Shown here: piece after piece, positions 4,181 to 45,977 of the stretch | How positions within the stretch are numbered: position 1 is the first letter of the stretch | Layout: every line of letters begins with the position of its first letter | Assembly: GCA_938010785.1 (NCBI GenBank) | Contig: CALLVC010000099.1 | Location: forward strand, 1-61,568 | Direction: 5' to 3' | DNA from: an uncultured Saprospiraceae bacterium | Lineage (GTDB): Bacteria > Bacteroidota > Bacteroidia > Chitinophagales > Saprospiraceae | DNA: 61,568 bases | Made by a program: the position numbers and the translations under genes | The notes under the pieces: generated by a model | Databases searched by the model: none | The model's input: the letters and a program-made list of their open reading frames with translations, nothing else | Told to the model about the DNA's origin: nothing

Positions 4181-5164
4181 TTAATCCAAAAAAGATTTCG
4201 CTTTAAATAATTCTGTCTCTTCTTTTTGATTTAACACATAACTAAATCCTGGCTGAATACTGTAACCTCCATGCATTCCTGCTTTGTTAATAGCACAGTA
4301 ACCCACCTGTATATCTTTATAATGTTGATTCTTCGCTATTCTGTTAACCGCTTCTTCACAGGCTTCTTGAGGGGTTCTTCCTTGTCTCATTAATTCTACG
4401 ACTAAAAACGAACCTAAAGTTTTCAAAACTGCTTCCCCTACACCCGTTGCTACAGCACCGCCTACTTCATTATCCACAAACATACCCGCACCAATAATTG
4501 GAGAATCGCCAACTCGTCCATGAATTTTATAAGCCATCCCACTAGTCGTACATGCGCCAGAAATATCTCCTTTTTGGTCAATAGTAATCATACCGATGGT
4601 ATCGTGATTTTCAATATTGATAACAGGTTTATATTCCGAATTGACTAGCCATGCTTCATATTCTTTTTTGGACTTTTCGGTCAACATTTCTTCTACCTTA
4701 AATCCCTGCTCTAAGGCAAATTTTAAAGCGCCCGCTCCTGCTAAAATAACATGGGGGGTTTCTTCCATCACTTTTCTAGCTACTGAAATAGGATGCTTAA
4801 TGCCCTGTAAAAAACAAACAGAACCACAATCTCCATTTTCATCCATAATACAAGCATCTAGTGTTACTTTTCCATCTCTATCAGGCCTTCCTCCATATCC
4901 TACCGATTGGTCAGTTTCATCTCCTTCTGGTATTTTTACTCCTGCCTCTACCGCGTCTAAAGCACGACCTCCATTTTTTATCACTTCCCATGCAGTTTGG
5001 TTGGCTTTTTTATTGTTCCAAGTAGCTATTACGGTAGGCTTAGTTATATCATTTGAGACTTGTTGTGTTTTTTCTTCGGAGGCACAAGCGGTGCTACCTA
5101 ATCCTATTGCTGCTAACAGCGAGCTTAAGGCGGAACGATGGATAAATTTTCTTCGATTTAACAT
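4181..5164 (-). CDS. Glycosylasparaginase / isoaspartyl peptidase family Ntn hydrolase (asparaginase 2 family)
   Basis: 327-aa ORF. Tat-like signal RRKFIHRSALSSLLAAIGLGSTAC. Autoprocessing motif ENHDTIGMITID. GACTTSG and GDSPIIGAGMFVDN motifs typical of this family. Confidence 0.85.
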   Translation of the reverse strand: MLNRRKFIHRSALSSLLAAIGLGSTACASEEKTQQVSNDITKPTVIATWNNKKANQTAWEVIKNGGRALDAVEAGVKIPEGDETDQSVGYGGRPDRDGKVTLDACIMDENGDCGSVCFLQGIKHPISVARKVMEETPHVILAGAGALKFALEQGFKVEEMLTEKSKKEYEAWLVNSEYKPVINIENHDTIGMITIDQKGDISGACTTSGMAYKIHGRVGDSPIIGAGMFVDNEVGGAVATGVGEAVLKTLGSFLVVELMRQGRTPQEACEEAVNRIAKNQHYKDIQVGYCAINKAGMHGGYSIQPGFSYVLNQKEETELFKAKSFLD

Positions 5165-5410
5165 TGTACTGGTTATTTTAATTAAGAATTTTTCATAAAA
5201 CTCTGACTTTGTAAGTCGTTTCTTATTTTGATTTCCCTACAATATCTATATATATTCTATGTTTTCGTCATTTGTACGCCACAATTCATCGAATATATCT
5301 TAATAAATTAAAAATAATACGCATTTTCGCAATCTGTTTGTAGATAGATTAATCTAATCACAACTTACTTTTAGCCCCACTTCCTAAATTCTCAACTCAC
5401 TAAATACAAA

Positions 5411-6742
5411 ATGTTCATGAAATTAAAAGGATTTACTAGTCTATTTTTATTATTTGGGATATTCACGCTTAATGCCCAAATGAATAAAATTGATTTTGTA
5501 GAATATGATTTGGACAATGGCTTACATGTCATCTTGCACCAAGATAATTCTACACCGATTGTTGCTGTCTCTATCATGTACCACGTTGGTTCAAAAAATG
5601 AAAACCCTGATAGAACAGGCTTTGCTCACTTCTTTGAGCATTTATTATTTGAAGGTTCGGAAAATATTCCTAGAGGCCAATTTGATAAGTATATTAATGG
5701 AGCAGGTGGCTCTAATAATGCTTATACCTCTCAAGACAAAACCTTCTACTATGAATTATTGCCATCCAATCAATTGGAACTAGGTCTTTGGCTAGAATCA
5801 GAAAGATTACTACACGCTAAGGTAGACCAAAAAGGAGTGGAGACACAAAGAGAAGTCGTCAAAGAAGAACGTCGTCAGCGTTACGAAAATCAGCCTTATG
5901 GTACGATTCTCCCCGAATCTATGTCAAGAGCATTTACTAAACATCCTTATCGGTGGGTGCCAATTGGCTCCATGGAGCACTTGAATGCCGCACAAGAAAT
6001 TGATTACATCAATTTTTACAAAGATTTTTATGTACCCAATAATGCTGTTTTATCTATCGCAGGAGATTTGGATATCGAAGCAACGAAGAAAATGGTGGAT
6101 AAATACTTTAGTGGTATTCCAAAAGGGACCAAAGAGATTTATAGGCCAGATGTGGTCGAAGGACCAATTATGGGAGAGGTAAAAGATACTGTATTTGATA
6201 ATATTCAGTTACCTGCGGTGGTGCAAACTTATAGATTACCTGCTCAAGGAACGCCTGATTTTTATGCAGTGAGTATGTTGGCTCAATTATTATCTCAAGG
6301 ACAAAGTTCTCGATTATACCGAGCTTTAGTTGACGAGCAGCAAAAAGCAGTTTTCGCTGGTAGTTTCCCTCTTCCTGCTGAAGACCCCGGAGTTAATATT
6401 GTTTATTCCGTAGCAAACATGGGCGTAGATGCAGCCGCTTTAAGTGACGCTATTGATGCAGAAATAGCAAGAGTGCAAAATGAATTAATCTCAGATAAAG
6501 AATTTCAGAAGTTGGTTAATCAAGTAGAAAATGATTTTATAACAGGTAATGCCACTGTATATGGAATTGCAGAAAGCTTAGCTAATTATTACACCTTTTA
6601 TGGGGACACCAATTTAATTAATACAGAAATTGACCGTTACTTAGCCGTGACAAAAGCTGATATTCAACGAGTAGCAAAGGAATACTTTAAAAAAGATAGC
6701 CGAGTCAATTTATTTTACTTGCCTAAGCAGGCTCAACCTTAA
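5411..6742 (+). CDS. M16 (pitrilysin) family zinc peptidase, catalytic subunit
   Basis: 443-aa ORF with a signal peptide. Inverted zinc motif HFFEHLLFEG (HxxEH) with a downstream conserved Glu region (REVVKEERRQR). Confidence 0.9.
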   Translation: MFMKLKGFTSLFLLFGIFTLNAQMNKIDFVEYDLDNGLHVILHQDNSTPIVAVSIMYHVGSKNENPDRTGFAHFFEHLLFEGSENIPRGQFDKYINGAGGSNNAYTSQDKTFYYELLPSNQLELGLWLESERLLHAKVDQKGVETQREVVKEERRQRYENQPYGTILPESMSRAFTKHPYRWVPIGSMEHLNAAQEIDYINFYKDFYVPNNAVLSIAGDLDIEATKKMVDKYFSGIPKGTKEIYRPDVVEGPIMGEVKDTVFDNIQLPAVVQTYRLPAQGTPDFYAVSMLAQLLSQGQSSRLYRALVDEQQKAVFAGSFPLPAEDPGVNIVYSVANMGVDAAALSDAIDAEIARVQNELISDKEFQKLVNQVENDFITGNATVYGIAESLANYYTFYGDTNLINTEIDRYLAVTKADIQRVAKEYFKKDSRVNLFYLPKQAQP

Positions 6743-26448: not shown

Positions 26449-26480
26449 TTTTTAGAGCTAAACCAACTTTAAAATTTTTT

Positions 26481-26508
26481 CCCGAACTTTCTTTATGGAA
26501 GGTTCGGG
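26481..26508. terminator. Hairpin terminator between the TonB receptor (+) and the DUF6884-like gene (-)
   Basis: CCCGAAC(T)TTC ... GAAGGTTCGGG, followed by ATTTTTTAT on the plus strand and preceded by AAAATTTTTT. Confidence 0.75.
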
Positions 26509-26521
26509 ATTTTTTATGCCC

Positions 26522-26896
26522 TTACTCTATATAAAAAGGCACCTCATACTGCTTCATTTCCGTTACCAAATGCCTTCGATAAGTTTCATTTGTCAATAGA
26601 TAGAAATAATCCTTTTGCAAATCACATCCAGCTTCTATTAATTGTTGCAGGACTTTAGCTGACCAATTTTTTAATGCGGCTTCCGATACATGATTTAAAT
26701 TCACATCGTATGGAGCAATTTCTTCTTCTAAAGACAATAGGTGATGTTTTCCTGAAAGGATGAATATGGCTGCAGGATTTTGCGCTTCGGCAAACTGCAT
26801 TAGTTTTTCAAACAGCTGACCTTGATATAAATCTTTAGCTGCGCAGGTATGATTCCTTTTAGGTGCTACGCAGGTAACGAGAATAATTTTTTTCAT
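26522..26896 (-). CDS. Small hypothetical protein resembling the DUF6884 family
   Basis: 124-aa ORF, 77 bp downstream of and co-directional with 26974..28683. From memory it matches the DUF6884 pattern: N-terminal C..K, then A.DLY.G.LF, ILSGKHHLL and PYD. Confidence 0.6.
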   Translation of the reverse strand: MKKIILVTCVAPKRNHTCAAKDLYQGQLFEKLMQFAEAQNPAAIFILSGKHHLLSLEEEIAPYDVNLNHVSEAALKNWSAKVLQQLIEAGCDLQKDYFYLLTNETYRRHLVTEMKQYEVPFYIE

Positions 26897-26973
26897 ATAA
26901 TTGACAGATATTAGACTTTCGAACTTTTCAGATAAATGCCTTATAAAAAAGTCAAAAGATGCTAGGTATATTG

Positions 26974-28683
26974 CTAAACCTTCAAATAAACTATAGACTT
27001 ATTTTCAACCTTTTCGCTTAGCCTTATCCCCGATTCAATATTTACAGCCTCTGTTACAGATTTATCATTTATTTTCAAGCTAATAATTTTTACTAATTTA
27101 ATATTGTGATTTTTTTCTATCAATAGGGAATCACCGATTGATATTTTAGTGTTATTAACATCAATAATTATGACCTCTCCTTGTGAGTAAATTTCCTTTA
27201 CTTTTCCTATTTCTATACAATTGGGTTTAAAATCAATAAGTCCAGTATCATAAAATTTTTCACGTGCCTCAGCTTTAGAAATAATTCCTCTATGAATCAA
27301 AAAATATAGTTTGTACAGCTGCCAGGTTGTTATTAAGCCTCGTTTATCTAACTTTGCATCATTTATTTGGTCTTGAGAAAAAGGAGGAGATTCCCTTTTT
27401 TGTGGAGGAAGGTGGCGTTGATGATTGACCAAATAGTGTGCAAATACATCAAATCTACCTCTTTCTTCCTGCCTCCTAGATTTTATTTTATGGATTTGAG
27501 AACATTCTTTATCAGTGGAAGTGCCTCCAATCCTTTTAGCCTCTATAATGATTAAGCCCTTTGTAGTTTCAATTTGTATATCTTCTTCTTTAATAGTTCT
27601 TTTTCGGATTTTATCATAATCAACCGCATTGTCAAAACCTAACCACTTAAAAAACTCAATTATCGGTTCAACTAATCCATCACCAGTTTGAATCAAAATA
27701 TCATGAAGGAATTCATGTTTTTTATAGTTGGAAGAAATTTCCTCTTCAATCAATTGTAATTCCTTCTCGTGTCGAACAATCTCACTATTTTTCTTCTTTA
27801 GTAAAGATTCATGATTGGGTAAGAAGTACGCTTTATCATTCTTCCATTGACCTTTTACAATTTCAGGAAAAAATTCAGGTAAAACAGTAGGGATATATTC
27901 AAATAAAAATTCTAACAAAAAACCTTCTTTATCTTTAAATTGCGGAAATACAAATAAATTTAAATCACTAAAAAACTCTATGTAAGAAATTATGTCTTCT
28001 TGACTATTAAACATTAAAGGATAAAAATCTGATTTTTTTACTCGCTGATTTTTAATAGGGTCAAAATAGGTAGGGAACGAAAATGTTTGCCGATATTTTG
28101 CATCTTGATTATGCTTGTTGAGAATTTTTGCTAATTCGGGTTCATTGCAGTTTACTACCGTTTCAACACCAAGTTTATTATTTTCTGAGGTGGGAAATTT
28201 TAAAAAATCATATAATGTATGAGATTCACTCTTAGGTTTTAAGCTTGTATTAGAATAATCTACTATTTGATATTCAGTTTGGTAATTCGATTCAGCAAAT
28301 ACAATGAATAAAGTGTTTTTTGTAAAATCCTTTATTTTTTCACCCAGAAACTTTAAACTTATTGGAGTTGGATTAAATAATGTTTCTGGGTAACGAGAAA
28401 GTAATCTAGAATCAGAACTTCCAGCTATAAATTCTTTCTGATGATTTTCTTTGACGTAAGGTTTGGATTCTCTATTAATTAAGTCAATAATAAATATCTC
28501 ATATTCATGGATATTTTGAGGGAACCGGGACTGAAGAAGACAGTAATGGTTTGGATGTCTGGGAGTATTGGGAATAATTAAACTATCTCCGAGACTTCCT
28601 TCATATAAATTTGTAGCTAGTTTTTTAAGTTTTGAATTTATTTTTTTGTCTAAATTGAATGTGCAAATTTTGGCTTTATACAT
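26974..28683 (-). CDS. 569-aa hypothetical protein with a predicted PD-(D/E)xK nuclease core and a C-terminal small beta-barrel-like domain
   Basis: Long ORF in clearly AT-rich DNA. aa 1-290 have no motif I recognise. Coiled-coil-like region at aa 291-330 (LLKKKNSEIVRHEKELQLIEEEISSNYKK). EED368-IQIETTKGLIII-E381-A-K383 followed by SQ. aa 488-569 alternate hydrophobic beta-like strands (GKVKEIYSQGEVIIIDV...IGDSLLIE...VKIISLKINDKSVTEA). Confidence 0.7.
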   Translation of the reverse strand: MYKAKICTFNLDKKINSKLKKLATNLYEGSLGDSLIIPNTPRHPNHYCLLQSRFPQNIHEYEIFIIDLINRESKPYVKENHQKEFIAGSSDSRLLSRYPETLFNPTPISLKFLGEKIKDFTKNTLFIVFAESNYQTEYQIVDYSNTSLKPKSESHTLYDFLKFPTSENNKLGVETVVNCNEPELAKILNKHNQDAKYRQTFSFPTYFDPIKNQRVKKSDFYPLMFNSQEDIISYIEFFSDLNLFVFPQFKDKEGFLLEFLFEYIPTVLPEFFPEIVKGQWKNDKAYFLPNHESLLKKKNSEIVRHEKELQLIEEEISSNYKKHEFLHDILIQTGDGLVEPIIEFFKWLGFDNAVDYDKIRKRTIKEEDIQIETTKGLIIIEAKRIGGTSTDKECSQIHKIKSRRQEERGRFDVFAHYLVNHQRHLPPQKRESPPFSQDQINDAKLDKRGLITTWQLYKLYFLIHRGIISKAEAREKFYDTGLIDFKPNCIEIGKVKEIYSQGEVIIIDVNNTKISIGDSLLIEKNHNIKLVKIISLKINDKSVTEAVNIESGIRLSEKVENKSIVYLKV

Positions 28684-28985
28684 TTAGGGACACTTAATTA
28701 GTTTTCTAAAATCCCAAAAATACAATCAAAATCAAACTAAGGTGATTTTTTTATATATAAAGATAGCTTTTATTTGCCAGTACGAAGTTTTTCTGTAGAA
28801 ATATTAATTTTTCTATCTGGATTAGATTATTCTTTATATGAAGAGTCACAATAAAGAGGATTGATTAAATTATACTTAGAATATATTTTAATCCTTCTAA
28901 ATAGTTGGTTAATTTCTTTAGTTGTAAAACTTCAGGTGAACAAATTATAAGATAGAAAATACTATAGTATCATTTTTAAACAAAA

Positions 28986-29021
28986 AAAGCGCATCATCAA
29001 TGTTACTTGATAATGCGCTTT
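28986..29021 (-). terminator. Rho-independent terminator of tRNA-Val
   Basis: 15-bp stem with one mismatch (28986-29000 pairs with 29007-29021) and loop TGTTAC. On the minus strand it is followed by a T-run (reverse complement of CAAAAAAAGC). Confidence 0.8.
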
Positions 29022-29022
29022 A

Positions 29023-29100
29023 TGGTGGGCGATGAGAGACTCGAACTCCCGACCCCCTGGGTGTAAACCAGGTGCTCTGAACCAACTGAGCTAATCACCC
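29023..29100 (-). tRNA. tRNA-Val (anticodon UAC), CCA encoded
   Basis: The reverse complement reads GGGTGAT TA GCTC AGTTGGTTCA GAGC A CCTGG TTTACAC CCAGG GGGTC GGGAG TTCGAGT CTCTC ATCGCCC A CCA. All four stems pair, the T-loop is TTCGAGT, and the anticodon loop is TT-TAC-AC. Confidence 0.95.
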
Positions 29101-34329: not shown

Positions 34330-37300
34330 TTAGGAGAAGAAAAAACGCTTAATAGTAAAAACCAAAAGTCCAATAATTAAAATTATTCCTACAAAAAAAG
34401 AAGTAGGCCAATGTCTATGCTGAAATTCAATGGGATTTATGTTCCCATAAGCAACATAGCCTGCCCAGAAGAATGGATGTCCAGTGCTTCTATTTTGCTT
34501 AATAAATTCTTTCTTTGCATTCCATAGTGCCTTATCTTTTGGCTGCCCGCTTTTAAGATTCTTATAAAAAATAGGCATAAAGGTAGCCGTGGAATTATCA
34601 CTCACTCTCCAAAGAGTAGTCACCATGCTTTTAGCACCTGCATAAGAAAATCCTTTTCCGATACCAACAATGCCCTCGCCCCGTTTCATTTCACCCAGCC
34701 CCGTTTCACAAGCACTTAACACCACCAAATCTGCTGGAATTATTAAATTAAAAAGGTCTCTAACATACAGCAATTGTTTATCGGAAGAATCCTGTGGTTC
34801 AGAAAAAGCTAAATAAGAATATTCGCCTTGTGCATCATTAGATTTACCATGAGTGGCTAAATGAAGAATTTGTCCTTTTTGAATATAGTCTAAGAAAGCT
34901 TTCCGGGTAGCAGTAACTCCTTTAATAACGGTGCCCCCAATATTATTTTTGATATTTTCTACCTCCTCCTGATTATATTTAAGTGGGCCTAAACCAATTC
35001 TAAAATCAGCAACATCATTCGAGTTATTTGTTCCCTTAAACACGGGAGCAATACCAACAAAGTTTTGGTCAAATTCTAGTACTTCTTTTCCATAAAGTTC
35101 GCTCAACCAATTTACTGAATGGGCATAACTAATTTGATACTGTTCCATTAAATAATTCACATTCGTAAAGTCTTCATCCTTATTAGGTTTTGCCGTTAAT
35201 AATGCATCGAAAGGCAAATGACTAATTGCTCCGTCTGTAATCAGTATGATTCTCTCCGTTAGGTGAGCTTCTATTGGTTGAATTAATAATTGGTATAACT
35301 CAAACCCTAATTGATTTGTGCTATTAATTAAGTTGGTATTCTCAGTCGTATTTATTGAAGACGGTCTATAACTATAAATACTTTCCCTAAACTTATTGAT
35401 TTTTATATCTAAATCAGCTTTTATCGGTAAGGTAAAAACTTGAAAATCGTCTTGCTGTATCAAAAATGCATACATAACATTTTCATCAATAAAGTATTCA
35501 AGAATAGATTGGTCCCGTTTTAGTATCTTTTGCTGAATCTCTTTTATTGAAATAAAGGTAGGCTCAAATTTTAGTTCATAATAATCTGGATAATCCTTAC
35601 CGATTTTATCGACTAACACTTGTCGTTCTTGTTTTAAATCAAAAATATCCCCGTTTAGCTCTCTTACTATGGCTCTATCTATCTCCGCTTTTTGATTTTC
35701 TTCATACCGTCTATTTTCTAGATAGGTAATATTATTTCTTAACTTTTTTTGCTGCTCGATAAGTGTATCTGGAATACCCGCTAATTCAAAGGCACTGATA
35801 TTTTTTATCGTTTCCAATAAAATTAAATTCTTACTTTTCTCAGATAAACCAAAGGCCGCTTCCAAATATTTCTTTTTGCTCGTTTGGGCATACAATCCAA
35901 GTTTTGTTTGAATTGCCATACTAAAAACCTTGTGGTATTCATCTATGAAGTTTTCCTTAGTACTCCTTTCCTGATAATTTTTATTAATATAATCTACCAG
36001 CACTATCGTGGAAGTAAGTAAACTATCTATTTTTAACAAATCCGTTGTCTCATTATTTAATCGATTCTGATATAGTGCTGCATATTCCAAATTTAGAGAA
36101 ACAAGATTTTTAAGTTGTTTAATTGTTAACAACATTTCATCACTCGTTTCACCATTTGCTTTGAAAGCTGCTGAATAGGCAGAAGTCGATTTTGCAGTAT
36201 CTTTTAGTTGTCGAAAACATGCTCCTTTTATTAGGTATAAATCAAAAAGTTCGACTGGTCTTTCTTGGTAGTACTTTTCGCCAAGTTTAATGGCTTTATT
36301 TATAGCTAACAATGCAACTTCTAAATTATTGACTGATATATGATGTCCTGCTATAGCTTTATAAGTATTCAACAAATAATCTTTATCATTTTTTTCAATC
36401 TTTTTGAATCCTTCAATGGCTATGTCAAAATGAATATTAGCTGCCGTGTTTTTTTTGTTAAGAGAGGCTTCAATTCCTTTAATCCGATGAACTGCTGGTA
36501 ATAAAAAAGGGTTCTCTTTATCTATGACCAATGCTTTATCCAAGTATTTGTACGCTTTTTTATAATCCTTAAGCTTTGCATAAACATCACCTATATTAAA
36601 ATGTAACATTCCTTCTCGAAAAATATCTCTCTTTTGTTGTTTTTCTACTATCTGTAAAGCTTTATAAAAATAGTTGATAGCTTCTCCATAAAGTTCATTT
36701 TGATCATAAGCATCTCCCAAATATTTGTAGGTATAAGCTAAATCTTCATGATTTTCTCCAAGTTCACTTTGCTTTAATACTAAAGCTTTTCTTAAGAACT
36801 TAATGGCTTCTACAAAATCGCCTTTAGAAAAAGCATTAAAACCTAACTCCTCATAAAAATCAGCATTTTCTGCATTTTCTTTAGGATGTATCTTTTTCAG
36901 AATCGCTAATCCTTGCTCGAAAGCCTCATCTGATTTAATAAACTGTTCTTTTGTTTGATATAAGAAACCGATATTAAAATATAGGTTACTTAGTTTGACA
37001 TGTGGTGCATTATATATTTTTTGTTTCAGCGCTAAGGATTTCTTATAATTTACTATACTGCTATCTAACTCTTCTAGTTCATGATAACAAGAACCTAGTA
37101 CTAGATAGGATTCTGCCAAGTAGACTAATTCAGCCGTATCTCTTTGTAAATATGTTTTTGTTGTATTTAAAAAATTAATTGCTTTATTCCAGTTTTCTTT
37201 TGCATGCCAGTATTCGCCTTGGAGATAGGCTATTTTACCTAAGTGAGTCGTATTCTTAGCCTTGGATAAGCTTTCCAATTCTTTGATGGTCACCAGTAAA

Positions 37301-37449
37301 CTTTCCATTTGACCATCTGCTAAGTACGCCTGAGCTTCGGTCCATTTTTTATCAAATAAATCCACATTTTCTTGGCCGATTCCTAAAAAGGAAATGCTCA
37401 TAAGAAACAGGGAAATTATTGTTTTTTTATGCCAAAAAATGATGCTCAT
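34330..37449 (-). CDS. TPR-repeat / CHAT-domain protein with N-terminal signal peptide and C-terminal TM anchor
   Basis: 1039-aa ORF. Multiple TPR-like repeats in aa ~30-460. CHAT caspase-like dyad context ILHLATHG ... LVVLSACETGLGE. C-terminal hydrophobic helix FFVGIILIIGLLVFTI. Confidence 0.85.
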   Translation of the reverse strand: MSIIFWHKKTIISLFLMSISFLGIGQENVDLFDKKWTEAQAYLADGQMESLLVTIKELESLSKAKNTTHLGKIAYLQGEYWHAKENWNKAINFLNTTKTYLQRDTAELVYLAESYLVLGSCYHELEELDSSIVNYKKSLALKQKIYNAPHVKLSNLYFNIGFLYQTKEQFIKSDEAFEQGLAILKKIHPKENAENADFYEELGFNAFSKGDFVEAIKFLRKALVLKQSELGENHEDLAYTYKYLGDAYDQNELYGEAINYFYKALQIVEKQQKRDIFREGMLHFNIGDVYAKLKDYKKAYKYLDKALVIDKENPFLLPAVHRIKGIEASLNKKNTAANIHFDIAIEGFKKIEKNDKDYLLNTYKAIAGHHISVNNLEVALLAINKAIKLGEKYYQERPVELFDLYLIKGACFRQLKDTAKSTSAYSAAFKANGETSDEMLLTIKQLKNLVSLNLEYAALYQNRLNNETTDLLKIDSLLTSTIVLVDYINKNYQERSTKENFIDEYHKVFSMAIQTKLGLYAQTSKKKYLEAAFGLSEKSKNLILLETIKNISAFELAGIPDTLIEQQKKLRNNITYLENRRYEENQKAEIDRAIVRELNGDIFDLKQERQVLVDKIGKDYPDYYELKFEPTFISIKEIQQKILKRDQSILEYFIDENVMYAFLIQQDDFQVFTLPIKADLDIKINKFRESIYSYRPSSINTTENTNLINSTNQLGFELYQLLIQPIEAHLTERIILITDGAISHLPFDALLTAKPNKDEDFTNVNYLMEQYQISYAHSVNWLSELYGKEVLEFDQNFVGIAPVFKGTNNSNDVADFRIGLGPLKYNQEEVENIKNNIGGTVIKGVTATRKAFLDYIQKGQILHLATHGKSNDAQGEYSYLAFSEPQDSSDKQLLYVRDLFNLIIPADLVVLSACETGLGEMKRGEGIVGIGKGFSYAGAKSMVTTLWRVSDNSTATFMPIFYKNLKSGQPKDKALWNAKKEFIKQNRSTGHPFFWAGYVAYGNINPIEFQHRHWPTSFFVGIILIIGLLVFTIKRFFFS

Positions 37450-39530: not shown

Positions 39531-39887
39531 ATGAAATTGGTAAATATTACCCTTGCCCTACTTTTTACAGTATTTGCTATTGTACAATACAATGACCCAG
39601 ACCCATGGTTGTGGATTAGTGTTTATTCTTTTATAGCAATTGTGTCAGGTCTTGCAGCTGTAAAAATATATCCCACTTGGTTGATACGAATCGGTCTAGC
39701 TAGTTGCGTGATTGGTTTAGGCATATTATTACCAGATTTTATAGATTGGATGAATACGGGGGCAGAATCCATTACCGAATCTATGCAAGCCAAAAAGCCA
39801 CATATTGAATTAACCAGAGAGTTCTTAGGTTTACTATTGTGTACTTTAGTTATGGGTTTACATCTTTGGCAATCGCAGCAAAAGTAG
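39531..39887 (+). CDS. Small integral membrane protein (TMEM220-like family)
   Basis: 118-aa ORF with four hydrophobic helices. N-terminal FAIVQYNDPDPWLWI motif as I recall it for transmembrane-220 family proteins. Confidence 0.65.
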   Translation: MKLVNITLALLFTVFAIVQYNDPDPWLWISVYSFIAIVSGLAAVKIYPTWLIRIGLASCVIGLGILLPDFIDWMNTGAESITESMQAKKPHIELTREFLGLLLCTLVMGLHLWQSQQK

Positions 39888-41025
39888 GTGATTCAGATTT
39901 AAGCGCTTCACAATTATTAAAGGCCATAAAAGCCTTTAATTTTTTTAGAAAAGGGGCATGAAATTCGTCTGAATTTTTCAAACCATCTTCCCAAACTAAA
40001 TTTCTTATCCAAAGGATTTTCGTCTTTCTATCTGCCTTTACATCTATTTGTCCTATAAAGTTTTTATCATATAAAATAGGTAAACTAAAATACCCCACCT
40101 TTCGTTTTTTAGCAGTCACATAGCATTCCAAAAGGTAAGAGAAGTCAAAGAGTTGTTCGACTCGTTTTCTCAAAATGACTAAATTGTCAAAAGGAGAAAG
40201 GATATGTAATTTTTTAGTTTTTCTAGCAGGGGAATAGCTGTCTATTGAATCCGTAAAAGCATAATAAGGGGTAGTGACTAGGTTTTTAATTTGAATTGGA
40301 CATAGTTCTCCCTTTTGAACAAGCTTATCTATTATCGCCTGTTTTTCTTTAATAGAAATTTTTAAGAGGTGCCCGATAGATTTCGTGGTGATGAGTCCAT
40401 GCGCGCCAATATCTCTTCGAATAATATGTTCGATGTATTCGTCCCTAGTTGGTAAATCTGTGTTTACTTCGGCTGGTAAAAAACGCTCGGGTAAGTCGTA
40501 GATTTTTTGAAAGCCTTTTCGCCCTACAATCATAATCCGCCCGTCCATAAACAGGTGCATTAAAGCCTGCTTGATGGGTGGCAATCCCCATCCTTGTATT
40601 TTGACAAACGTACCTTTATCAAAATCCTTTGACATCATGGGACCCCGTTCTTTAATTTGGTCAAGCACATAGGCCATATTTTGAGGATTCTTTTGGTACC
40701 AGTGTTTATCCTTTTGTGTTTTTTCCCATTTTCTATATAAGCTAAACCGATAATCTTTCATTGGCAAAAAACTGGCAGCATGCGCCCAATAATCATAGAC
40801 TTTTTTATCTTTTTCTACTAAGGTGCTTAAAAAATCGGCTTGATAATTAGGCACTCTAGTCCATAGGACATGATGATGCGCTCGTTGGACAACAGAGATA
40901 GTATCAATTTGTACATAGCCTAGCTGTTCAATCGTTTCAAGTACCCCCTTTTTACCTTTTTTAGGAGTCGGTAATTGATGGTCTAAGACAAAAGAACGGG
41001 CGGTATTTTTGGTGATGATTTTCAA
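39850..41025 (-). CDS. YcaQ/AlkZ-like winged-helix DNA glycosylase family protein (DUF1006)
   Basis: 391-aa ORF. N-terminal ARSFVLDHQL...LETIEQLGYVQIDTISVVQRAHHHVLWTRVPNY is characteristic of the YcaQ family. The 3' end overlaps the convergent 39531..39887 by 38 bp. Confidence 0.8.
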   Translation of the reverse strand: MKIITKNTARSFVLDHQLPTPKKGKKGVLETIEQLGYVQIDTISVVQRAHHHVLWTRVPNYQADFLSTLVEKDKKVYDYWAHAASFLPMKDYRFSLYRKWEKTQKDKHWYQKNPQNMAYVLDQIKERGPMMSKDFDKGTFVKIQGWGLPPIKQALMHLFMDGRIMIVGRKGFQKIYDLPERFLPAEVNTDLPTRDEYIEHIIRRDIGAHGLITTKSIGHLLKISIKEKQAIIDKLVQKGELCPIQIKNLVTTPYYAFTDSIDSYSPARKTKKLHILSPFDNLVILRKRVEQLFDFSYLLECYVTAKKRKVGYFSLPILYDKNFIGQIDVKADRKTKILWIRNLVWEDGLKNSDEFHAPFLKKLKAFMAFNNCEALKSESPTFAAIAKDVNP

Positions 41026-43018: not shown

Positions 43019-43038
43019 TTTTTGCATTTTTGCAAAAA
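43019..43038. promoter_or_regulatory. 8-bp inverted repeat TTTTTGCA-N4-TGCAAAAA, candidate operator (C-box-like) upstream of the HTH gene
   Basis: Perfect arms at 43019-43026 / 43031-43038, ending 10 nt before ATG 43049 of the small HTH protein that heads the methyltransferase operon. Confidence 0.4.
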
Positions 43039-43048
43039 ATATCTATTT

Positions 43049-43333
43049 ATGGATGACTGGAAACTTAAAGCAAAAAGGTTATTAAAGTCGGAGTTAATAA
43101 GAAAAGGTATATCTCATAAAATGCTGGCATTAGAACTAAATCAATTAGGTATTGAAGAGACAAAATCAAGTATTGATAGTAAAATAAGCCGAGGGACTTT
43201 TAGTGCTGCTTTTTTACTACAATGTTTATATGTTTTAGATTGTGATCAATTATTTTTAGGAAGAGAGAAAAGTACATTAAGTATTGCTGCCGAAGCCGTA
43301 GTGAGTTATCAAAAAAAATCAAAAAATGCATAA
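43049..43333 (+). CDS. Small HTH protein (DUF6471-like), putative controller of the R-M cassette
   Basis: The ORF track starts at TTG 43022; ATG 43049 gives MDDWKLKAKRLLKSELIRKGISHKMLALELNQLGIEETKSSIDSKISRGTFSAAFLLQCL. I recall this pattern as DUF6471. Its stop overlaps the MTase ATG (ATGCATAA, 43326-43333). Confidence 0.65.
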   Translation: MDDWKLKAKRLLKSELIRKGISHKMLALELNQLGIEETKSSIDSKISRGTFSAAFLLQCLYVLDCDQLFLGREKSTLSIAAEAVVSYQKKSKNA

Positions 43334-44669
43334 GAGAAAAGTTAAATTTATTGATTTATTTGCGGGTATGGGAGGAATGAAATTAGGGTTTGAAAATGCT
43401 TTTAAAAAACATGGTTTTGAGACGGAATGTGTGATGACCTCAGAAATAAAACCTTATGCTATAAAAACTTTGATGGCAAATTTTTCAGGAGAAAATTTTG
43501 TTGGGGATATTTTTAAGGTTAGAAATGAAGCTATACCTGATTTTGATTTCCTATTAGGAGGATTTCCTTGTCAACCATTTAGTGCAAGCGGAAAGCGTTT
43601 TGGTTTTCAAGACACAAGGGGCACTTTATTTTTTGAGATTGAACGAATTTTAGAAGCAAAAAAACCTTACGGTTTCATTTTAGAAAATGTTGAGGGGTTA
43701 ATAAAACATGATTTAGAGAATAAGAAAGATAAAATAGGACGCACTTTAAAAACAATATTGATTAAATTAAGAGAATTGGGTTATCAGGTCTCCTATAATT
43801 TATTAGATTCTATTGATTTTAATTTGCCACAATCCAGAAAAAGAGTGTTTATAGTGGGAACAAGAGAAAAAGAAATTGATTTGACTGATTTTCCCACGAA
43901 GCGAGCAAAATTAAGAGAGATATTAGAGACAGGATTGGATACAGTAAGTACGACTTTTACAAAAAAGTTGCTACAAAACTATTCTATTGAAGAACTTTAT
44001 GGAAAATCTATCAAAGATAAAAGAGGAGGAAAGAATAATATTCACAGTTGGGATATAGAAATAAAAGGAGCTGTAAGCCCCAAACAGAAGCTTTTATTAA
44101 ATAAATTATTTAAAGAGCGAAGGAAGAAAAAATGGGCAGAAGAAAATGGCATTGATTGGATGGACGGAATGTCGCTATCATTAGAACAGATAAATACCTT
44201 TTTTCCTGATAAAAAATTAAAGGAACTTTTAGATGATTTGGTGGATAAAGGATACTTGAAATTTGAACATCCTAAAAAACTAGTGCGAGAAGTAACTGAA
44301 AATGGGGGTATCAAAAAATTTAGAACTTTTGATGAAGATTTACCAAAAGGATATAATATAGTTACGGGAAAATTGAGTTTTGAAATTAATAAGATTTTAG
44401 ATCCAGAAGATATAGCTCCTACTTTAGTTGCCACAGATGTTTCTAGAATAGCAGTGGTAGATGGTAGTGGGTTGCGAAAATTATCTATTCGAGAAGGTTT
44501 AAGACTTTTTGGGTATCCAGAGTGGTATAAAATACCAGTAAAAGAAAAAGAAGCATTTGATTTATTAGGGAATACGGTGGCTGTGCCAGTTATGGAAGCT
44601 GTAGCGATTAGAACCGCAGAAATATATGCTAGTTATAATCAATTAACAACAAGTACCGTCCCCGTATGA
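43326..44669 (+). CDS. DNA (cytosine-5)-methyltransferase
   Basis: 447-aa ORF. Motif I FIDLFAGMGG, motif IV GGFPCQPFS, motif VI ENVEGL, motif VIII QSRKRVF, long variable TRD, motif X GNTVAVPV. Confidence 0.95.
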   Translation: MHKRKVKFIDLFAGMGGMKLGFENAFKKHGFETECVMTSEIKPYAIKTLMANFSGENFVGDIFKVRNEAIPDFDFLLGGFPCQPFSASGKRFGFQDTRGTLFFEIERILEAKKPYGFILENVEGLIKHDLENKKDKIGRTLKTILIKLRELGYQVSYNLLDSIDFNLPQSRKRVFIVGTREKEIDLTDFPTKRAKLREILETGLDTVSTTFTKKLLQNYSIEELYGKSIKDKRGGKNNIHSWDIEIKGAVSPKQKLLLNKLFKERRKKKWAEENGIDWMDGMSLSLEQINTFFPDKKLKELLDDLVDKGYLKFEHPKKLVREVTENGGIKKFRTFDEDLPKGYNIVTGKLSFEINKILDPEDIAPTLVATDVSRIAVVDGSGLRKLSIREGLRLFGYPEWYKIPVKEKEAFDLLGNTVAVPVMEAVAIRTAEIYASYNQLTTSTVPV

Positions 44670-45325
44670 GTCTTGTAATTTTTTAATACTTTTCTTAACC
44701 AGTGAGAATTATCCTTTCTTGTTTGAGCATATTGATATCTAGTATTATTTAATGCAGATAGGAATGCTTCTTTTGAGTTGAATGGTTTGAATCTACTTCT
44801 CTCAGAATACCAAGTAGATGGCCTCAAGTTGTATATTATATTTTTTTTCTCCTGAACTTTTATAGGGTACGTACCACTTGGACATGCAAGTTCCCATATT
44901 TTTTTGAGCCATACATTCTTGATACTTAATTCACTACCAATAAGCTCATAAGCAAAAATTAGATAATCTGAATCTAGTCTGTAAGCATCTGTAAGTAAAG
45001 AATTACAATAGGAATCAAAATTTGCTAAATCAAATCCAGGCCCTCTTTTCCAATCAAAAGATTTTATTTCTAAAAGTCCTTCTTTTAAGTTTGTATTATT
45101 TAAATAAAAATCAGGAAAACTTTGAGTATTCTTATTTTCTTCAAAAAAGATGTTATTTTGTTTTAACCAAGCTTTAAGCCATTCTTGCAGTAAATTACCA
45201 ACAGAATCTTTTGTTTCTACTGCAATTGTCAAATCTTTTAATGTAAAATTAATAACACCCTTCTGACCTATAATTTTATAATCTTTTATTAATTTATCAT
45301 ATAATTGATGGGATGTCAGTTTCAT
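44639..45325 (-). CDS. Type II restriction endonuclease (PD-ExK fold), family not identified
   Basis: 228-aa ORF convergent with the MTase, overlapping it by 31 bp. Catalytic pattern E37 ... P71-D72 ... E86-I-K88 (SFPDFYLNNTNLKEGLLEIKSF). Confidence 0.75.
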   Translation of the reverse strand: MKLTSHQLYDKLIKDYKIIGQKGVINFTLKDLTIAVETKDSVGNLLQEWLKAWLKQNNIFFEENKNTQSFPDFYLNNTNLKEGLLEIKSFDWKRGPGFDLANFDSYCNSLLTDAYRLDSDYLIFAYELIGSELSIKNVWLKKIWELACPSGTYPIKVQEKKNIIYNLRPSTWYSERSRFKPFNSKEAFLSALNNTRYQYAQTRKDNSHWLRKVLKNYKTHTGTVLVVN

Positions 45326-45437: not shown

Positions 45438-45977
45438 TCACTCCCAATTCAAGACCACTCCAAAAAATACCACTCGCCGATTCAAATATTCCGCAAAGCG
45501 TTGGCTATAATCTTCATTATAATTATAGTCACGAACGTTCTTAAAATCGAGTAAATTAGTAGCATTAGCATAAAGAACCGCAGAGCCAAAAGGCAAACCA
45601 ATAATTCTGGAAATACTGAGGTCCATTTTGTGATAATCGGGTAATCGAAGCCCCTCGTGTTGGGCGGCAAAAATGGGCGCAAAAGTATTGGTCTGTTCAT
45701 CAAAATAGCTTTGACTAACGGGCAAATAATACCGACCTTGGCGTTGCCAATAAACGAGTCCTAGTTCCCAAAGACCAGCTATTTTATACTGTAAAGTAGT
45801 TCTTAAAAAATAGCTCAAATCATAATCAGTAGGAATAGCATTACCGTCATTTTCTAGCGAAGATTGAATACTGGCTACACTAATACCAGCTCTTAGGTTT
45901 TGACCTTTATAAGCCGCATAAATTTCTGCTCCACGAACTAGATTTGGTGTAATGATTTGATAAACTAGGATATATTT
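45438..45977 (-). pseudogene. C-terminal remnant (~180 codons) of a TonB-dependent receptor
   Basis: The reading frame is open from 45977 down to the stop at 45438. Barrel-strand pattern, ending ...RRVVFFGVVLNWE like a TBDR terminus. No plug or N-terminal barrel; upstream the frame runs straight into the repeat at 45978-46082. Confidence 0.65.

Follow-up and report, generated by a model that had tools for sequence, protein, structure and literature searches.

The locus examined here lies on a 61,568-nt contig of a metagenome-assembled genome of an uncultured member of the Saprospiraceae (this whole stretch is referred to below as the window) and raises the question of whether two adjacent minus-strand genes form one functional system. 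The larger gene (26974-28683) encodes a protein of 569 amino acids (aa) that belongs to an unnamed family, and the smaller one (26522-26896) encodes a DUF6884 protein of 124 aa. Both lie between the gene for a TonB-dependent receptor and a tRNA-Val gene. A first-pass annotation of the window had interpreted them as an AT-rich two-gene cassette and a candidate defence module. We found that the large gene is a single-gene horizontal acquisition adjacent to tRNA-Val and that the DUF6884 gene is a resident bystander located outside the inserted element. The two genes are therefore neighbours by insertion accident and not a functional pair.

The insertion is evident from the comparison with sister genomes. 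The order of genes in two of these (loci L092 and L095) is as follows: AsmA-like protein; tRNA-Val(tac); a spacer of 65-73 bp including the tRNA terminator; DUF6884; and TonB-dependent receptor. This is the arrangement of the window minus a block of ~2.08 kb (26899-28977, minus strand), which is composed of the large gene, its leader and a 77-bp trailer and encodes the large protein only. Alignments with L092 and L095 produced by blastn cover window positions 29247-29023, break, and resume at 26898/26891. Since the same gene order occurs in these genomes without the block, the large gene must have been inserted alone. L001, another assembly of the source organism, has an identical order of genes around the large gene.

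One edge of the insertion site is marked by the resident tRNA-Val(tac) gene (29023-29100, minus strand), which is separated from the large gene by 339 bp. It is directly followed by its own intrinsic terminator hairpin (28986-29021, minus strand), also a resident feature with a position conserved in the sister genomes. The tail of this terminator, GCTTTTTTTGTTT, is kept in the window down to ~28978. The AT-rich leader of the inserted gene (28684-28977, minus strand; GC content 0.228) was initially described as ending at tRNA-Val, but the tRNA possesses a terminator of its own. A possible Bacteroidota-type -7 box, TATTTTTG, is located in the leader at 28715-28722. The frequency of the -7 motif in the window was at the chance level, as was the outcome of a sigma-70 promoter scan, and neither of them was used as evidence. 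No credible open reading frame and no Rfam match were found in the 339-bp leader region.

Base composition also separates the two genes. The GC content of the large gene (0.298) falls within the lowest 1% of all 1,710-bp windows of the contig (mean 0.358, standard deviation 0.028), and that of the region 26920-28977 is 0.288 as compared to 0.358 in the entire window. The DUF6884 gene, with a GC content of 0.360, is close to the window average. The low GC content originally attributed to the cassette as a whole is thus a property of the large gene and its leader, but not of the DUF6884 gene. The survey of the insertion edges revealed no integrase, att-like duplication, target-site duplication or inverted repeat; the only repeats present were short and at the chance level.

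The two genes also differ in their distribution. A DUF6884 gene was absent from all of the ~90 loci at which a relative of the large protein is encoded, including those of the closest clade, which display 44-54% identity. These loci comprised 80 metagenome loci, 4 distant genomes, 4 closest-clade look-ups (5 loci), and 3 plasmids. Conversely, the large protein had no relative at any of the retrieved loci of DUF6884 orthologues (7 loci in 3 distinct contexts). The pair occurs in the source organism only, namely in the window and in L001. Homologues of the two genes are thus not syntenic elsewhere, an outcome regarded at the outset as evidence against a two-gene module. In addition, conservation is asymmetric: relatives of the DUF6884 protein are 70-89% identical to it, while the best relative of the large protein shares 54% identity. 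Asymmetric conservation, separate synteny and differing composition therefore argue against a module.

The DUF6884 relatives with 70-89% identity number in the dozens; all of them are 124 aa long, and at least one is annotated as belonging to the Saprospiraceae. In all 7 retrieved loci (L092-L098), the DUF6884 gene is convergent with the gene for the same TonB-dependent receptor, and in three related Saprospiraceae-type contexts the proteins are 78-87% identical. No conserved upstream partner of DUF6884 was found across these loci. The side facing away from the TonB-dependent receptor varies among them and is occupied by tRNA-Val and AsmA, by ExbD, or by unknown genes for proteins of 120 aa/554 aa. 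This variable junction is located at about position 7000 in L092-L096 and may be a site of recurrent rearrangement or gene gain in this lineage.

The identity of the small protein was recognized correctly at the outset: it matches the DUF6884 profile PF21818 with E = 1e-32 and 113.5 bits (gathering cut-off 30). Further matches were to the PADLOC candidate PDC-M57A (E = 7.4e-39, profile positions 1-120 of 138), to phrog_5935, and, weakly, to DpdC (E = 8e-5, only profile positions 49-110 of 312). Residues C9 and K13 (CxxxK) as well as I46-L47-S48-G49-K50 (ILSGK, a version of LSAxxG) are invariant in 18 DUF6884 homologues. According to Pfam curators, DUF6884 is distantly related to the DNA-binding YaaA, and its member from B. 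subtilis, YfjM, interacts with DNA lesions (PMC11701544). DUF6884 proteins have been proposed to bind DNA and to flip bases, and motifs of the CxxxK and LSAxxG types have been described in them (PMC11701544). DpdC belongs to the Dpd restriction-modification (R-M) system, where it targets modified bases of DNA and turns preQ0-DNA into ADG-DNA (PMC10164549).

These properties, together with the co-directional arrangement and the lack of a predicted terminator between the two genes, which makes co-transcription likely, would fit a two-gene defence module, for example one in which the DUF6884 protein is a base-flipping reader or modifier of DNA involved in self-immunity or sensing and the large protein is the effector. 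However, this explanation is highly improbable given that the pair does not recur at any of the other loci, that the DUF6884 gene has a host-like GC content and close orthologues in fixed synteny, and that the large gene entered the locus alone. The small protein shares with members of the PDC-M57/'cantaloupe-fold' group (YfjM, DpdC) the matches to PDC-M57A and PF21818, the CxxxK motif and the LSAxxG-type motif, but its gene is resident here and displays fixed synteny with the TonB-dependent receptor. No PADLOC-recognised gene for a second PDC-M57 component is located beside the DUF6884 gene, whose neighbours are the large gene and that for the TonB-dependent receptor, although the composition of PDC-M57 itself was not retrieved. 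The open-access literature contained nothing relevant on PDC-M57. Membership in the Dpd system was considered and rejected, since the match to DpdC covers only ~60 of 312 positions and the flanks are occupied by the TonB-dependent receptor, the large gene and tRNA, with neither dpdA nor dpdB. Genes of the DUF6884/PDC-M57A type can be ordinary resident genes.

As first described, the two open reading frames are located on the minus strand and separated by 77 bp. No terminator was predicted in this interval, and the spacer formerly located upstream of DUF6884 was replaced by the insertion, as seen from the comparison with sister genomes. For these two reasons, transcription of the resident DUF6884 gene has probably been coupled to that of the large gene since the insertion. 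Co-transcription is then a consequence of the insertion and is no evidence of shared function. At the other end of the DUF6884 gene, the hairpin terminator noted earlier on the side of the TonB receptor was confirmed at 26480-26509; it has a 13-bp stem followed by a T-run and lies between the convergent genes for the receptor and DUF6884. Proximity, co-orientation and an AT-rich patch were thus insufficient to define a system at this locus, and it was the sister genomes that told the bystander from the newcomer.

What can be retained of the proposed defence module is the large protein itself, as an uncharacterised sensor-plus-PD-(D/E)xK protein with a probable function in defence. The initial view that no named family could be assigned to either product does not apply to the small protein but holds for the large one, which gave no match at E <= 1 in Pfam, PADLOC 2.0, NCBIfam or PHROGs. 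The PADLOC check suggested for both proteins thus yielded PDC-M57A for the small one and nothing for the large one; relatives of the latter from Klebsiella and Synechocystis were not matched by any PADLOC model either. A search of the family profile against all PDB sequences returned only a chance match to a Fab (E = 2.2).

Homologues of the large protein form at least 562 clusters at 90% identity. The family includes 1,674 representative sequences (50% identity) at E <= 1e-3, 591 of them with E <= 1e-30. The best 150 of the 1,674 representatives are mostly ~560-620 aa long, those that are shorter align with the profile only partially, and fusions to other domains were not seen among these 150. 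Members of the family are patchily distributed among the Bacteroidota, Planctomycetota (Scalindua), Acidobacteriota, Campylobacterota (Aliarcobacter), Cyanobacteriota, and Pseudomonadota. Relatives with 27-39% identity are encoded on plasmids of Synechocystis, Klebsiella, Serratia, and Pantoea; the homologue from a Klebsiella plasmid is WP_016946333.1. A query of genome contigs with the single protein matched the source organism only, and a megablast search with the Klebsiella homologue gave no match in complete E. coli genomes. Nothing relevant was found in the open-access literature on the RefSeq accessions of the relatives or on the combination of domains described below. Solitary sensor-nucleases are well known as a kind of system, but no description of this family or of its combination of domains appears to exist in the resources queried, which included the open-access literature and PADLOC 2.0 of 2023.

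The domain composition of the large protein was predicted using AlphaFold models built from the family alignment. The full-length model (pLDDT 86.6) gave Foldseek results dominated by the C-terminal barrel, and residues 1-480 were re-modelled (pLDDT 82.9) in order to expose the other domains. The models agree well with the layout read from the sequence at first, namely an N-terminal domain, a coiled coil, a nuclease core and a C-terminal beta domain.

The N-terminal alpha/beta domain (~residues 1-250; 27934-28683, minus strand) is predicted to adopt a fold similar to that of class I glutamine amidotransferases (GATases). Its Foldseek matches include 3fij, 2a9v, 7mo6, PabA, and HTS, with E values from 1.5e-3 to 0.25 and target-normalised template modelling (TM) scores of 0.43-0.50. 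The best match was 3fij (E = 1.5e-3, probability 0.99, TM 0.43-0.47), while 2a9v gave a TM score of 0.50. The best structural matches thus correspond to class I GATases such as lin1909, the GMP synthase/PabA subunits and homoserine O-succinyltransferase; non-catalytic copies of the GATase fold in glycoside hydrolases were also among them. H59 is nearly invariant and E60 invariant in 40 homologues, and both are kept in relatives with 27-29% identity. However, no invariant or nearly invariant cysteine is present in residues 1-290 of these 40 sequences, and no Pfam GATase profile was matched. An active amidotransferase was therefore rejected, as the lack of a conserved cysteine leaves no Cys-His-Glu triad. 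This domain is probably a pseudoenzyme or a binding domain.

A helical linker (~residues 251-350; 27634-27933, minus strand) follows. It contains a long helix of 30-40 residues, which was assigned by DSSP to positions 291-322/331 in both models and may form a coiled coil.

The third part of the protein (~residues 351-480; 27244-27633, minus strand) resembles the core of PD-(D/E)xK nucleases in its invariant motif residues and in the predicted strand-strand-helix-strand pattern. The residues suggested in the first-pass annotation as catalytic, D368 (27580-27582), E381 (27541-27543), and K383 (27535-27537), were located correctly and are invariant in 40 homologues with ~40-54% identity. The complete set of residues invariant in these homologues is: E367, D368, E381, K383, S389, D391, C394, Q396, K399, R403, R404, N420, H421, and R423. 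Nearly all of them are also present in the Klebsiella and Synechocystis relatives, and D368/E381/K383 are retained in plasmid relatives with 27-29% identity. In the models, this triad is located on predicted strands 369-372 and 377-383, which form a beta-hairpin of the alpha/beta core. The motif D...(D/E)xK on consecutive strands is therefore present, and the resemblance at the level of fold is weak. The following Foldseek matches were obtained with the 1-480 model: Nt.BspD6I (E = 0.02); SduA (0.022); VC1899 (0.099); and BstEII (0.24). None of these is below 1e-3, and no curated profile of the PD-(D/E)xK clan in Pfam, NCBIfam, PADLOC or PHROG was matched at E <= 1. The triad and residues of the other domains are under strong purifying selection.

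The ExK motif is followed by the conserved loop KxIGGTSxDxxCSQ, of which residues 383-390 correspond to positions 27514-27537 and which continues to residue 396 (27496). This Gly-rich, flexible loop is one of the most conserved stretches in the family, yet its pLDDT is below 50 in both AlphaFold models.

The C-terminal beta-barrel (~residues 481-569; 26977-27243, minus strand) is similar to domain II of EF-Tu/IF2. Foldseek comparison with PDB gave 179 matches at E <= 1e-3; the top 50 listed were all translation GTPases, with a best E value of 5e-6. Comparison with BFVD gave similar results, e.g. IF-2 with a root-mean-square deviation of 3.8 over 92 columns. In translation factors, the barrel of domain II interacts with charged tRNA at its 3' end. 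What members of this family sense could therefore be a small molecule, the 3' end of a nucleic acid or a protein of a phage instead of a DNA sequence.

Genomic neighbourhoods of the relatives revealed no recurrent partner gene across the homologue loci, so that the family is a single-gene unit. Genes for restriction, defence or mobility were frequent among the neighbours, which included: an NgoPII-type restriction endonuclease (REase) with a C5 methylase; HsdR with YgjP-like and PLD genes; Eco57I/MmeI-type IIG enzymes; Mrr, GmrSD, PIN, and NA-iREase1; IS110 transposases; and Roc-COR NTPases with effector-associated domains (Roc-COR-EAD11). The adjoining restriction genes span types I, II, IIG, and IV.

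One clade shows a closer association with restriction genes. In Aliarcobacter butzleri (L004, 5143-8831) and in the metagenome contigs L042, L045, and L053, the homologue is located inside a type II R-M operon: the gene for an NgoPII-type REase ends 3-13 bp upstream and that for a C5 methylase overlaps the end of the homologue by 4-19 bp. This trio persists even though the protein diverges to 57% identity. The three genes may make up one restriction system, or the nuclease may have come to depend on the methylase. Such an arrangement, and the position of other members after HsdR, YgjP, and PLD genes, would also be expected if the large protein were an accessory of R-M systems, i.e. a second nuclease or a specificity/regulatory subunit working with the neighbouring REase and methylase. 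For the family as a whole we consider this role to be quite improbable: the wedged position is confined to one clade among ~90 loci, the adjoining R-M systems are of different types, and neither a methylase nor a REase gene adjoins most members, the window copy among them.

Two further observations concern the same set of neighbours. A family of ~973-aa proteins is encoded immediately downstream of the homologue in four loci, L014 (6834-9755), L018, L034, and L035. Also, PDC-S05, a single-gene candidate of PADLOC, was matched strongly by three proteins of the set (E = 4e-62).

Several copies are carried by mobile elements. An integrase and IS110 are part of the element that carries the Aureispira copy, and the copy on a K. 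pneumoniae plasmid has IS1 on both sides. The conjugative (MOBF) plasmid NZ_CP024642.1 of Klebsiella michiganensis (L101, 2315-7539) encodes a 563-aa relative with 27.7% identity directly downstream of pifC and of a P-loop NTPase gene in the pifA position; an Abi-family gene is located 3 kb beyond. In the record MT837188.1 (L102), the gene for a 603-aa relative (4905-6716) is flanked on one side by a block of integrase and excisionase genes and on the other by the gene for a CI-like repressor, a location where exclusion genes are common in temperate phages.

The occurrence of copies on plasmids, between IS1 elements, next to integrases or IS110, and within a lysogeny module of the prophage type raises an alternative in which the large gene serves the mobile element itself, be it by plasmid or prophage maintenance, exclusion of competitors, as an addiction toxin, or as a recombination or homing nuclease. 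The precise insertion of a single gene without an integrase into the window would fit a gene that is self-mobilising or driven by recombination. However, the insertion is not bordered by terminal repeats, a duplicated target site or an att-like copy of the tRNA end, and an antitoxin-like partner does not recur. The three-domain architecture of 569 aa is unlike that of known homing endonucleases, and carriage by mobile elements is equally typical of defence genes. A service to the mobile element is therefore regarded as unlikely.

A housekeeping nuclease of the host for DNA repair or recombination would be another explanation, since many repair enzymes are found among PD-(D/E)xK nucleases. The window also encodes an AlkZ-like glycosylase in addition to the DUF6884 protein, a type of protein proposed to bind DNA lesions (PMC11701544). 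This possibility is very slight, however: the gene is missing from the sister genomes at the same locus, its composition is atypical, its spread across phyla is patchy, it is carried by plasmids and an unverified phage-type contig, and it has no conserved genomic partners.

The absence of library matches, the invariant triad, the patchy occurrence among phyla, carriage of the plasmid and prophage type, and the restriction and defence genes in the neighbourhood make a defence function of the large protein probable. With moderate confidence, we predict that it is a DNA nuclease which takes part in conflict between genomes and acts alone. The more specific explanation that we favour, with a probability only slightly better than even, is that the large gene is a solitary defence gene for an autoinhibited sensor-nuclease, inserted singly and independent of DUF6884. 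The PD-(D/E)xK core with D368/E381/K383 would cut DNA, and the long helix would mediate oligomerisation. The N-terminal GATase-like pseudoenzyme and the C-terminal EF-Tu-domain-II-like barrel would hold the nuclease inactive or target it, and activation would occur upon recognition of a feature of the invading DNA, for example a base modification, the end of a DNA molecule or a foreign protein. Such a mode of action is similar to those proposed for Shedu and type IV restriction enzymes. A further proposal, which we put forward only tentatively, is that the relatives constitute an undescribed family of single-protein immune nucleases, in which this core operates under two sensor modules not known from defence proteins, the GATase-like pseudoenzyme and the barrel similar to EF-Tu domain II.

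Several points weigh against the favoured explanation. The structural matches of the nuclease core and the N-terminal domain are weak (best E values of 0.02 and 1.5e-3, respectively), with TM scores at the edge of fold-level significance. The counts of defence neighbours are raw numbers without a background comparison; many metagenome contigs are too short to display neighbours, and several loci have ordinary metabolic neighbours. The search of IMG/VR viral contigs with the family alignment revealed no relative; among phage records, a relative was present only in MT837188.1, a 7.5-kb contig from human faeces that is marked as unverified. Gain of the gene in this organism, as opposed to loss in its relatives, is suggested by composition and phyletic patchiness and not by a dated phylogeny. 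Also, PADLOC 2.0 dates from 2023, and the family may correspond to a system named later.

Among the known nuclease systems, Shedu (SduA, DUF4263) is similar to the large protein in being encoded by a single gene, in combining an N-terminal non-catalytic domain with a PD-(D/E)xK core, and in occurring among defence genes. The match of E. coli SduA (8ps4_A) to the 1-480 model had a probability of 0.47 and a TM score of ~0.2, and the DUF4263/SduA profiles from Pfam and PADLOC did not match the large protein at E <= 1. In contrast to Shedu, its N-terminal domain is uniform across the family and not variable, and an additional barrel similar to EF-Tu domain II is present. By profile definitions, the large protein does not qualify as Shedu, as a PADLOC 2.0 system or as a member of a Pfam nuclease family.

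The pairing of a sensor with a nuclease in the absence of a methylase is the framework of modification-dependent (type IV) enzymes (PMC12191111). The large protein shares the sensor-plus-nuclease layout and the restriction-rich neighbourhoods with such enzymes, i.e. Mrr, SauUSI, GmrSD, and END nucleases (PMC12191111). Like them, most of the homologues and the window copy, whose neighbours are DUF6884 and tRNA-Val, lack a cognate methylase. However, Pfam detected none of the modification readers (PUA/EVE/SRA/YTH/ASCH, winged helix, iEndoIII) in the large protein, and its flanking domains are instead GATase1-like and translation-factor-barrel-like. END nucleases were rejected as a match because of their unrelated PLD + iEndoIII architecture. 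The best structural matches of the core are to type II/IIS restriction and nicking enzymes, represented by Nt.BspD6I (5liq) and BstEII (9ibq), and one clade is embedded in the NgoPII R-M operon described above. There is, however, no relation to these enzymes at the sequence level and no adjacent methylase in the window or at most loci.

Should the large protein indeed function in defence as a nuclease, a sizeable family, whose 1,674 representatives all lack a Pfam, PADLOC or NCBIfam label, would join the single-gene immune systems and add a domain combination that is overlooked by current detection tools. The relatives on Klebsiella, Serratia, and Pantoea plasmids make the function testable in a tractable host, with the K. 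michiganensis plasmid locus as a convenient natural context.

Other genes of potential interest are present elsewhere in the window. The type II R-M cassette reported at a distance of 14 kb was indeed identified at 43022-45325, i.e. 14.3 kb away, in a patch of low GC content. It encodes a DUF6471 protein (103 aa), a C5 methylase (447 aa), and an NgoBV-type REase (228 aa). The stop codon of the DUF6471 gene overlaps the start of the methylase gene, and the REase gene is convergent. The cassette is adjoined by an open reading frame of 126 aa without annotation (45438-45818). The gene for the AlkZ-like DNA glycosylase (39850-41025, minus strand) is located ~2 kb from the cassette. Finally, another patch of low GC content (0.29-0.33) contains the gene for a 1,039-aa protein (34330-37449, minus strand) with TPR and CHAT (caspase-like protease) domains, an architecture typical of conflict or signalling systems.

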